This document shows positions 6,120 through 6,361 of a stretch of 34,735 nucleotides of DNA, in pieces. This DNA is from Promethearchaeota archaeon (GTDB lineage: Archaea; Asgardarchaeota; Thorarchaeia; Thorarchaeales; Thorarchaeaceae), in contig JBHLPB010000001.1 of assembly GCA_048939905.1 (NCBI GenBank), positions 1-34,735 of the forward strand, given 5' to 3'. Made by a program: the position numbers and the translations under genes. Position 1 is the stretch's first letter, and every line of letters begins with the position of its first letter. The notes under the pieces are model-generated. The model saw nothing but the letters and a program-made list of their open reading frames with translations, was not told the DNA's origin and searched no databases.

Positions 6120-6135
6120 GAACACGTGTTCTAAT
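6120..6135. repeat. palindromic repeat copy 1 (GAACACGTGTTCTAAT)
   Basis: Core GAACACGTGTTC is a perfect 12-bp palindrome. The 16-mer is identical to copy 2. Lies 35 bp outside ORB1. Confidence 0.8.
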
Positions 6136-6170
6136 CATGCCCCAGTCATACTCAGGTATTATGGGACAAC

Positions 6171-6192
6171 ACCCCTTCATTTCCAGTGGAAC
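6171..6192 (-). promoter_or_regulatory. origin recognition box ORB1 (Orc1/Cdc6-binding-site-like)
   Basis: Minus strand reads GTTCCACTGGAAATGAAGGGGT. This is the dyad TTCCAnTGGAAA plus a downstream GGGGT tract, the canonical archaeal ORB layout. Confidence 0.6.
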
Positions 6193-6311
6193 TGATCTAT
6201 GGTGTTTTGGCAGCGGGTATTACTAATACCATAAAAAATGGAGATAAACTGCAGCTTAGTAAGCGGCTATTTATACTTTCCGACATCGAAACGTATCGAC
6301 ATTCAAATGAA

Positions 6312-6333
6312 TTTCTACTGGAAATGAGGGGGT
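6312..6333 (+). promoter_or_regulatory. origin recognition box ORB2
   Basis: TTTCTACTGGAAATGAGGGGGT; 19/22 identical to ORB1 and in the opposite orientation. Confidence 0.55.
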
Positions 6334-6345
6334 CATGTTGTCTTG

Positions 6346-6361
6346 GAACACGTGTTCTAAT
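6346..6361. repeat. palindromic repeat copy 2 (GAACACGTGTTCTAAT)
   Basis: Identical 16-mer 12 bp outside ORB2. Overlaps the stop codon (6357-6359) of the small minus-strand ORF. Confidence 0.8.

Follow-up and report, generated by a model that had tools for sequence, protein, structure and literature searches.

We describe a candidate chromosomal replication origin in a Promethearchaeota archaeon of the family Thorarchaeaceae, located on a 34,735-nucleotide stretch of DNA (henceforth referred to as the window) that is the whole of contig JBHLPB010000001.1 (C125 in our numbering) of assembly GCA_048939905.1 (2.34 Mb, 281 contigs, 74% complete). Here, two inverted origin recognition boxes (ORBs) flank an AT-rich spacer beside the iorA gene, and we consider it probable, at about 70% and judging from sequence comparison, that this ORB pair (6171-6333) forms the core of a functional, Orc1/Cdc6-dependent chromosomal origin of the classical oriC1 type. 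The established basis for this reading comprises the motifs, their uniqueness, conservation and layout, the AT-richness of the spacer, the assignment of the initiator paralogues and a strand-skew change-point that coincides with the pair. The type of element is itself textbook, which makes this an origin candidate of the classical kind in an Asgard lineage, and the locus departs from a textbook origin in that its initiator gene is unlinked, palindromes bracket the ORBs and a distant third ORB lies in a repeat array of its own. The central elements are as follows.

6171-6192, minus strand: ORB1, GTTCCACTGGAAATGAAGGGGT, a dyad and a G-tract directed away from the spacer
6193-6311, no strand: AT-rich spacer, candidate duplex-unwinding element (DUE), of low G+C content and low stability
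6234-6244, plus strand: in-spacer block AAAATGGAGAT, unchanged in the alignment of congeners
6266-6280, minus strand: TATA-like octamer, GGAAAG-TATAAATA, resembling an archaeal transcription factor B recognition element (BRE) and TATA box directed at iorA
6312-6333, plus strand: ORB2, TTTCTACTGGAAATGAGGGGGT, inverted relative to ORB1
10431-10452, plus strand: ORB3, GTTCCACTGGAAACCAAGGGGT, intergenic, oriented as ORB2 and 4.1 kb away from it

Sequence and layout of the ORB pair

A preliminary description of the window had reported two inverted 22-nt ORBs, each consisting of a dyad and a GGGGT tract, and the sequence confirms this in every detail: ORB1 and ORB2 are identical at 19 of 22 positions, lie in opposite orientation with both G-tracts pointing outward, and are 119 bp apart when measured between the 22-mers, or 121 bp apart between the 21-mers returned by an inverted-repeat search (repeat I1). 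The spacer, estimated earlier at about 38% G+C and as lower than its surroundings, measures 37.2% G+C (6192-6312) vs 47.5% for the window, so that only 0.6% of 121-bp windows rank as low; the least stable 40-mer within it begins at 6218 and is within the 0.07% least stable of the window. The pair had also been placed in a 756-bp gap between iorA and the LKR gene. The pair is indeed non-coding, but the gap as a whole is not, as it holds a small gene, and the non-coding stretch amounts to ~310–340 bp (6016/6046-6356), from the iorA start (6045 or 6015) to the stop codon of the small gene (6357-6359).

We searched for the full ORB pattern (dyad plus G-tract), with the identical motif reversed as a control, in this genome and in comparison sets of 86 genomes of the family and 201 of the phylum. 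The window contains three matches vs 0.01 expected by chance, and these are the only three in the 2.34-Mb genome, so that the motif is not scattered: every copy is on C125, intergenic and within 4.3 kb of the others. Allowing up to three mismatches adds just two more ORB-like loci. The pattern is present in 56 of the 86 family genomes and 78 of the 201 phylum genomes, at 1–4 copies each, and the reversed pattern gave no match in either set. The ORBs are therefore beyond chance, as the excess of matches over expectation, the genome-wide rarity and the empty control all indicate.

Conservation of the module

The layout, consisting of ORB(-), an AT-rich spacer of 119–125 bp, ORB(+) and a third ORB ~4.1 kb off, is kept in at least eight genera. 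We tabulated the module in 17 genomes, matching the pair elements by the strict pattern or by a CTCCA pattern; genera that score zero by the strict pattern carry a CTCCA variant of the dyad. In all 17, the pair elements that matched retain their position and orientation, with ORB(-) followed by ORB(+) 142–146 bp on (start to start), near the 3' end of the small gene; and in the 16 for which ORB3 was recorded, an ORB3-type ORB(+) lies 4.0–4.1 kb from that 3' end, past the LKR, SDH and winged-helix genes (16/16). The order iorA, ORB pair, small gene and LKR is maintained in four genera, and the non-coding region as a whole is 67–88% identical within the genus. ORB1 is invariant in an alignment of the locus from eight congeners and is also kept in other genera, the half-dyad variant TTCTA of ORB2 is itself conserved across genera, and ORB3 is invariant over 20 genomes.

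The spacer was compared in 12 genomes of three genera, where it is 119–125 bp long and 24–39% G+C. Two elements within it stand out. The sequence AAATGGAGA occurs in all 12 spacers, and its reverse complement TCTCCATTT is found again ~80 bp from ORB3; the in-spacer block AAAATGGAGAT may be an analogue of the Sulfolobus ucm motif (see below) or a transcription start region. A TATA-like octamer (6267-6274 in the window) is likewise found in 12/12 spacers, with CTATTTATA invariant in the eight-congener alignment, and from its sequence GGAAAG-TATAAATA is a putative promoter. Outside the pair, between iorA and the first of the palindromes described below, a bipartite GTATTACAATTATTACC at 6081-6097 is nearly invariant in congeners.

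A strand-skew change-point coincides with the ORB pair

We analysed GC skew with gene orientation regressed out and compared 23 contigs of at least 20 kb. Coding-strand GC skew was consistently ~+0.077. The two strongest orientation-corrected change-points among the 23 contigs are those of C125 and of its orthologue in a related genome (G004). On C125 the change-point falls at 6 kb, that is, at the position of the ORB pair, where skew passes from +0.043 to -0.060 (t=4.7); on the orthologous G004 piece the ORB pair lies 4.8 kb to the right of the change-point, which falls at 12 kb. Because the two contigs are orthologous, these are not independent observations. The raw local cumulative skew near the ORBs shows a maximum, not a minimum. 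The strongest change-point of the 23 contigs falls at this locus, where a skew inflection was to be looked for, but its polarity is opposite to that in bacteria and skew across the genome is weak. The change-point is consequently evidence that coincides with the ORB pair yet is ambiguous. Archaeal skews are weak in general (preprint 10.1101/2023.11.15.567178).

Over 10614-34735, the orientation-independent skew of the contig (s_r) is -0.054, among the largest of all contigs of at least 12 kb. Two other genomes were rejected for such analyses. The 2.58-Mb 'contig' of G004 consists of 399 pieces in arbitrary order joined by 100-N linkers, which renders whole-genome cumulative skew, and distances, on it meaningless; and the closed genome of another relative, G047, was rejected as a test genome for the locus as it is without the whole module.

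Initiator genes

An adjoining orc1/cdc6 gene is usual at archaeal origins, though not universal. The orc1/cdc6 gene at 30630 had been described as the only one in the window, which it is, but the genome encodes a second on contig C178. The names attached to homologues of Orc1 also point to a Thorarchaeota archaeon.

30630-31850, plus strand: orc1/cdc6 paralogue of the NCBIfam NF001623 type, 20–42 kb from the ORB zone in relatives

The two proteins belong to different NCBIfam equivalogs. The C178 protein scores 335 bits to Sulfolobus solfataricus Orc1-1 (2qby_A) and 325 bits to Aeropyrum pernix ORC1 (2v1u), lies above the NF001625 cut-off and, judged by its sequence, is unmistakably the orthologue of the ORB-binding initiator Orc1-1. 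The 30630 protein matches PDB entries 1fnn (Pyrobaculum aerophilum Cdc6) at 199 bits, 2qby_A at 157, 2v1u at 126 and 1w5s at 110, and stands at about the same distance from A. pernix ORC1 (126 bits) as from ORC2 (110 bits). We term it merely a 'divergent paralogue' because the clade of 1fnn is left unsettled by the literature.

In five relatives in which the genes lie on a single contig, the order is orc1-1, window-type orc1, ORB3 and ORB pair, with the window-type orc1 20–42 kb from the ORBs and orc1-1 60–160 kb away. In the 10-contig relative G042, the ORBs are at about C2:231-235 kb and orc1-1 is at C2:78 kb. The same ORB motif is found in other Asgard families, at 1–11 kb from an Orc1-1-type gene. 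An example is a 1.4-Mb single contig from such a family (G026:C1:622653-622884), in which two identical copies of TTCCAGTGGAAATAAAGGGGT, inverted with G-tracts outward and ~190 bp apart, form a perfect pair ~1.3 kb upstream of an Orc1-1-type gene, the classical linked arrangement. Because these families keep the ORBs near orc1-1, we infer from the sequences that the ORBs are sites of the Orc1-1 orthologue and that the separation of origin and initiator gene in the Thorarchaeaceae would be a derived state within Asgard archaea. The cognate initiator is most likely the Orc1-1 orthologue on C178 rather than the 30630 paralogue. The preliminary description had singled out the Orc1 encoded at 30630 for binding assays; the C178 protein is the better candidate, 30630 being a divergent paralogue.

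Genes for the large and small subunits of RFC, together with the orc1 paralogue, are on C125 with the ORBs. The 148-bp intergenic region directly upstream of orc1-1 (C178:661-808; gene at 809-2053) contains three ORB dyads that are devoid of G-tracts, TTCCAATGGAAA, CTCCAGTGGAAG and TCCAGTGGAAC, around a TATA-like AAATATAAGG; from this arrangement, the cluster is probably an autoregulatory operator rather than an origin. A similar dyad site precedes orc1-1 in the closed G047 genome (C1:15170). A tRNA gene (30331-30404) lies 225 bp upstream of the window's orc1 paralogue and a second, partial tRNA match (model positions 10–63) is at 22428-22485; an Rfam search of the window returned these two tRNAs and nothing else. 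A sigma-70 promoter scan was set aside as not applicable to archaea.

Comparison with known archaeal origins and a proposed mechanism

According to the Ori-Finder-Arch preprint (10.64898/2026.08.15.744077), ORB(-)/DUE/ORB(+) is the minimum arrangement for a functional archaeal origin. A Pyrococcus furiosus ORB1 oligonucleotide, the reverse complement of which is GGTTCCAGTGGAAATGAAACTCTGGGGGG, is bound by purified Cdc6 in electrophoretic mobility shift assays (PMC1904270), and ORB1 of the window shares GTTCCA(C/G)TGGAAATGAA, that is, the dyad and the following ATGAA, with that reverse complement. In Saccharolobus islandicus, linker scanning of oriC1 showed that each inverted ORB and the ucm motif of the DUE are required in vivo (PMC12141716).

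Close in layout is oriC1 of Sulfolobus/Saccharolobus, which has an ORB3-DUE-ORB2 core and a distal ORB1, bound by Orc1-1, and in which the ucm motif in the DUE is bound by UBP (PMC12141716). In both loci, an AT-rich element of ~120–130 bp separates two inverted ORBs, a third ORB is present and the spacer has a short invariant motif (here AAATGGAGA); an Orc1-1 orthologue is encoded in both cases. The present locus differs in that the initiator gene is non-adjacent and on another contig (60–160 kb off in relatives), the third ORB is 4.1 kb off with four genes between, no homologue of UBP could be detected for the small protein, and the pair and the small gene lie among three GAACACGTGTTC palindromes. 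At the Thermococcales oriC of Pyrococcus, Cdc6 binds a region of 5 kb in which inverted ORB1 and ORB2 are accompanied by mini-ORBs and a further cluster, ORB3, is located inside dp1 (PMC1904270). The ORB core is nearly the same (GTTCCAnTGGAAATGAA...GGGG), and in both, another ORB site accompanies the main pair at a distance of a few kb. The one in Pyrococcus, an ORB cluster set apart from oriC by a few kb, is bound by Cdc6 and so provides a precedent for ORB3. Unlike in Pyrococcus, where cdc6 lies between the ORB clusters, the small gene, LKR, SDH and the winged-helix gene lie between them here, and there is no swarm of mini-ORBs. The main oriC of Hyperthermus butylicus is also an 'orphan' ORB-DUE-ORB without a flanking orc1/cdc6 (Ori-Finder-Arch preprint), a likeness by description only and with a different phylum, whereas the separation here would have been derived within Asgard archaea. 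Finally, the ORB3 module resembles the WhiP-dependent oriC3 of Sulfolobus in being a repeat-rich non-coding region beside a winged-helix gene, but its repeats are RTTCACW instead of TACTAC-type inverted repeats and its winged-helix protein has no detectable kinship with WhiP/Cdt1 other than the generic fold.

By analogy with oriC1 of Sulfolobus and Aeropyrum, initiator binding, MCM loading, melting and firing would take place at the ORB pair. Monomers of Orc1/Cdc6, in this case most likely the C178 Orc1-1 orthologue and not the 30630 paralogue, would bind ORB1 and ORB2 with opposite polarity, the winged-helix domain being on the TTCCAnTGGAAA dyad and the initiator-specific motif of the AAA+ domain on the GGGGT tract. 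The two initiators, each turned towards the 121-bp AT-rich spacer, would then load MCM onto it, the duplex would open at about 6218-6257, and forks would depart bidirectionally.

Accessory features around the ORBs

Further conserved features lie around the pair and around ORB3.

6117-6134, no strand: palindrome 1, TAGAACACGTGTTCTAAT, 39 bp outside ORB1; position kept in congeners and other genera
6343-6360, no strand: palindrome 2, TTGGAACACGTGTTCTAA, 12 bp outside ORB2, overlapping the stop codon of the small gene; conserved
6360-6683, minus strand: small gene of ~96–108 aa, found in Thorarchaeota only and always beside the ORB pair
6673-6690, no strand: palindrome 3, TTAGAACACATGTTCTGA, overlapping the ATG of the small gene; conserved in position
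9477-10151, minus strand: Thorarchaeota-specific winged-helix gene (224 aa), candidate binder of the RTTCACW array
10152-10613, no strand: 460-bp conserved non-coding region around ORB3, with blocks conserved across genera

The three palindromes are copies of the 18-bp TTRGAACACGTGTTCYAA, which occurs at 11 sites in the genome, mostly intergenic, and they bracket the ORB pair together with the small gene. The latter is a real gene, since conservation has a period of three over ~6360-6690 in the eight-congener alignment and a single-copy homologue is present in 72 of the 86 family genomes. Its protein has 124 database homologues, and all but one of those with a named source are from Thorarchaeota or Promethearchaeota. 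An AlphaFold2 (AF2) model has a ferredoxin-like alpha/beta fold with a mean predicted local distance difference test score (pLDDT) of 86, but no significant match was found in Pfam, NCBIfam, PDB sequences or PDB folds (Foldseek), and the only fold matches were generic ferredoxin-like ones at E >=0.04. A Cas2/VapD-like identity is unsupported beyond that generic fold, and no homologue in the UBP family was detected by sequence or by fold (PDB).

The region around ORB3 is the genome's densest cluster of RTTCACW heptamers, with seven sites in 400 bp vs 0.58 per kb genome-wide, and contains GGCGCCATTCACA, which is unique in the genome. Its first part, 10152-10304, is non-coding despite the DNA conservation because relatives have stop codons there, which rules out a coding N-terminal extension (ORF 9477-10304) of the winged-helix gene. 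The winged-helix protein is present in 71 of the 86 family genomes, with homologues 70–96% identical. Its AF2 model, of mean pLDDT only 64, shows an H-H-H-beta-beta arrangement at residues 130–197 (C-terminal), and fold matches were to generic MarR, Cdt1-C and ArsR domains only, all at E >=0.05; in this low-confidence model the matches to the Cdt1 C-terminal domain (E ~0.1–0.7) are no better than those to MarR. A WhiP/Cdt1 identity is thus unsupported, the matches being to generic winged-helix folds only. The GAACACGTGTTC palindromes and ORB3 with its RTTCACW array are lineage-specific accessories; other proteins probably bind them and modulate the use of the origin or the promoters beside it.

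A fourth ORB-like site lies outside the window, near a contig end (C18:3972-4002, within the locus C18:3850-4012). It reads ACCCCTCTACCTCTCCAGTGGAAACGAAGGGGC and has the structure ACCCCTCTACC-TCTCCAGTGGAAAC-GAAGGGGC, that is, a single dyad flanked on both sides by G-tracts. Some 110 bp upstream of the site are a GAACACGTGTTC palindrome and a TATA-like AT-rich stretch of 75 bp, and a 130-aa gene follows ~40 bp downstream. Orthologues of the locus are at G004:C1:1698047-1698201 and L012:1361-1521, and it is conserved in genera g1, g4 and g5. Going by these features, the locus may serve as a second origin or as a promoter under Orc1 control.

Alternative readings of the locus

The proposal that the ORB pair is a functional Orc1/Cdc6-type origin, made in the preliminary description from the succession of ORB, unwinding element and inverted ORB, is supported by the rarity of the motif, the layout shared across genera and the coincident change-point. 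A number of findings weigh against it. No initiator gene is directly beside the pair, the nearest orc1 being 24 kb off and a divergent paralogue. The orientation-independent skew is weak (mean |s_r| of 0.018 vs 0.077 for the coding strand), and the plus strand is C-rich to the right of the ORBs, with C-rich presumptive leading strands where the bacterial rule is a G-rich leading strand. The spacer holds a BRE/TATA-like element, and the fourth ORB-like site, on C18, stands in a promoter-like context with the same palindrome. Lastly, the closed relative G047 (3,157,342 bp; 86% complete by marker genes) is without orthologous iorA, ORB pair, small gene, LKR and winged-helix gene and has both orc1 genes (C1:15264-16388 and 54783-55973). 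Because this closed genome is without the whole segment, either the module is dispensable or the segment is absent from the G047 assembly (natural deletion vs assembly loss).

Because the C18 site is promoter-like and accompanied by the same palindrome, purely regulatory binding of Orc1 has to be considered, in which the ORBs would be operators through which an Orc1/Cdc6 paralogue and a palindrome-binding factor regulate iorA, the small gene and their neighbours, and no replication would start here. The conserved minus-strand GGAAAG-TATAAATA between the ORBs, with ORB1 downstream of it towards iorA, would suit such a role, as would the C18 site with its TATA-like stretch and palindrome ahead of the 130-aa gene in g1, g4 and g5, the three mini-ORB dyads that overlap the orc1-1 promoter on C178, and the missing module in G047; moreover, the Orc1-2 protein of Sulfolobales is known to act as a regulator and not as an initiator (PMC9738581). 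However, inverted full ORBs with outward G-tracts around an AT-rich spacer of conserved length are the defining layout of an origin and not that of a typical operator, merely three to four motif sites per genome do not mark a regulon, and in other Asgard families the ORBs adjoin orc1-1, as at classical origins. Since origin and promoter functions frequently overlap in archaea, the TATA box does not rule out an origin either, and we regard a purely regulatory role as improbable. We give similarly little credence to the idea that the pair is a real ORB origin that is dormant or secondary, most replication starting elsewhere; the alternatives include the vicinity of orc1-1, the C18-type locus with its ORB and AT-rich stretch, and recombination-dependent initiation. 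That G047, closed and from this family, has both orc1 genes and no module could be explained in this way, as could the existence of a second conserved ORB and AT-rich locus and the weak replication skew genome-wide, and the literature documents dormant origins and origin-independent replication in archaea (PMC4595724, PMC5663688). On the other hand, the module is near-universal in the family with tight spacing, the locus has the genome's only full inverted ORB pair and the strongest residual skew change-point, and G047, at 86% completeness, may simply have lost the segment from its assembly.

We give next to no weight to the idea that the pair arose as an inverted repeat by chance or represents the termini of a miniature mobile element with inverted repeats. 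Its outline resembles that of a miniature inverted-repeat transposable element, the two 26-nt arms showing 85% complementarity at a distance of 121 nt, but the pair is single-copy in the genome, has a fixed syntenic position across genera and equals the archaeal ORB consensus in sequence, with 0.01 matches expected per window; copy number and synteny (no dispersed copies, no variable insertion sites) effectively refute a mobile element. A further proposal extends the origin rather than replacing it: the whole 4.5-kb zone would be a composite origin and would require, in addition to Orc1, partners specific to the lineage, namely a dimeric GAACACGTGTTC binder and the Thorarchaeota winged-helix protein on the RTTCACW array around ORB3. 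The GAACACGTGTTC palindrome accompanies the fourth ORB locus on C18 as well. We hold this composite version to be unlikely, and prefer the reading of the ORB pair as the core of a classical Orc1/Cdc6-dependent origin.

Implications for replication in Asgard archaea

To our knowledge, no Asgard replication origin has been defined by experiment, and our search of the literature found no ORB-level description of any Asgard origin. The origin of Odinarchaeum has been guessed from GC skew (PMC9246712), another Asgard origin from the position of cdc6 used as a marker (PMC11217426), and Promethearchaeota are included in bulk origin predictions (Ori-Finder-Arch preprint). The locus described here narrows the target for experiments to a precise 160 bp and comes with named candidate proteins. 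Were the composite version true, the two partners of Orc1 would constitute an additional initiator system, accessory or second, with a function comparable to that of WhiP or UBP and no relation to them in sequence, and hence an extra tier of control over origins among the close archaeal relatives of eukaryotes. Overall, the comparison with other Asgard families, which keep the ancestral linkage of origin and initiator gene, suggests that this linkage has been broken in the Thorarchaeaceae, and a tool that searches only beside orc1 genes would for that reason overlook the site.

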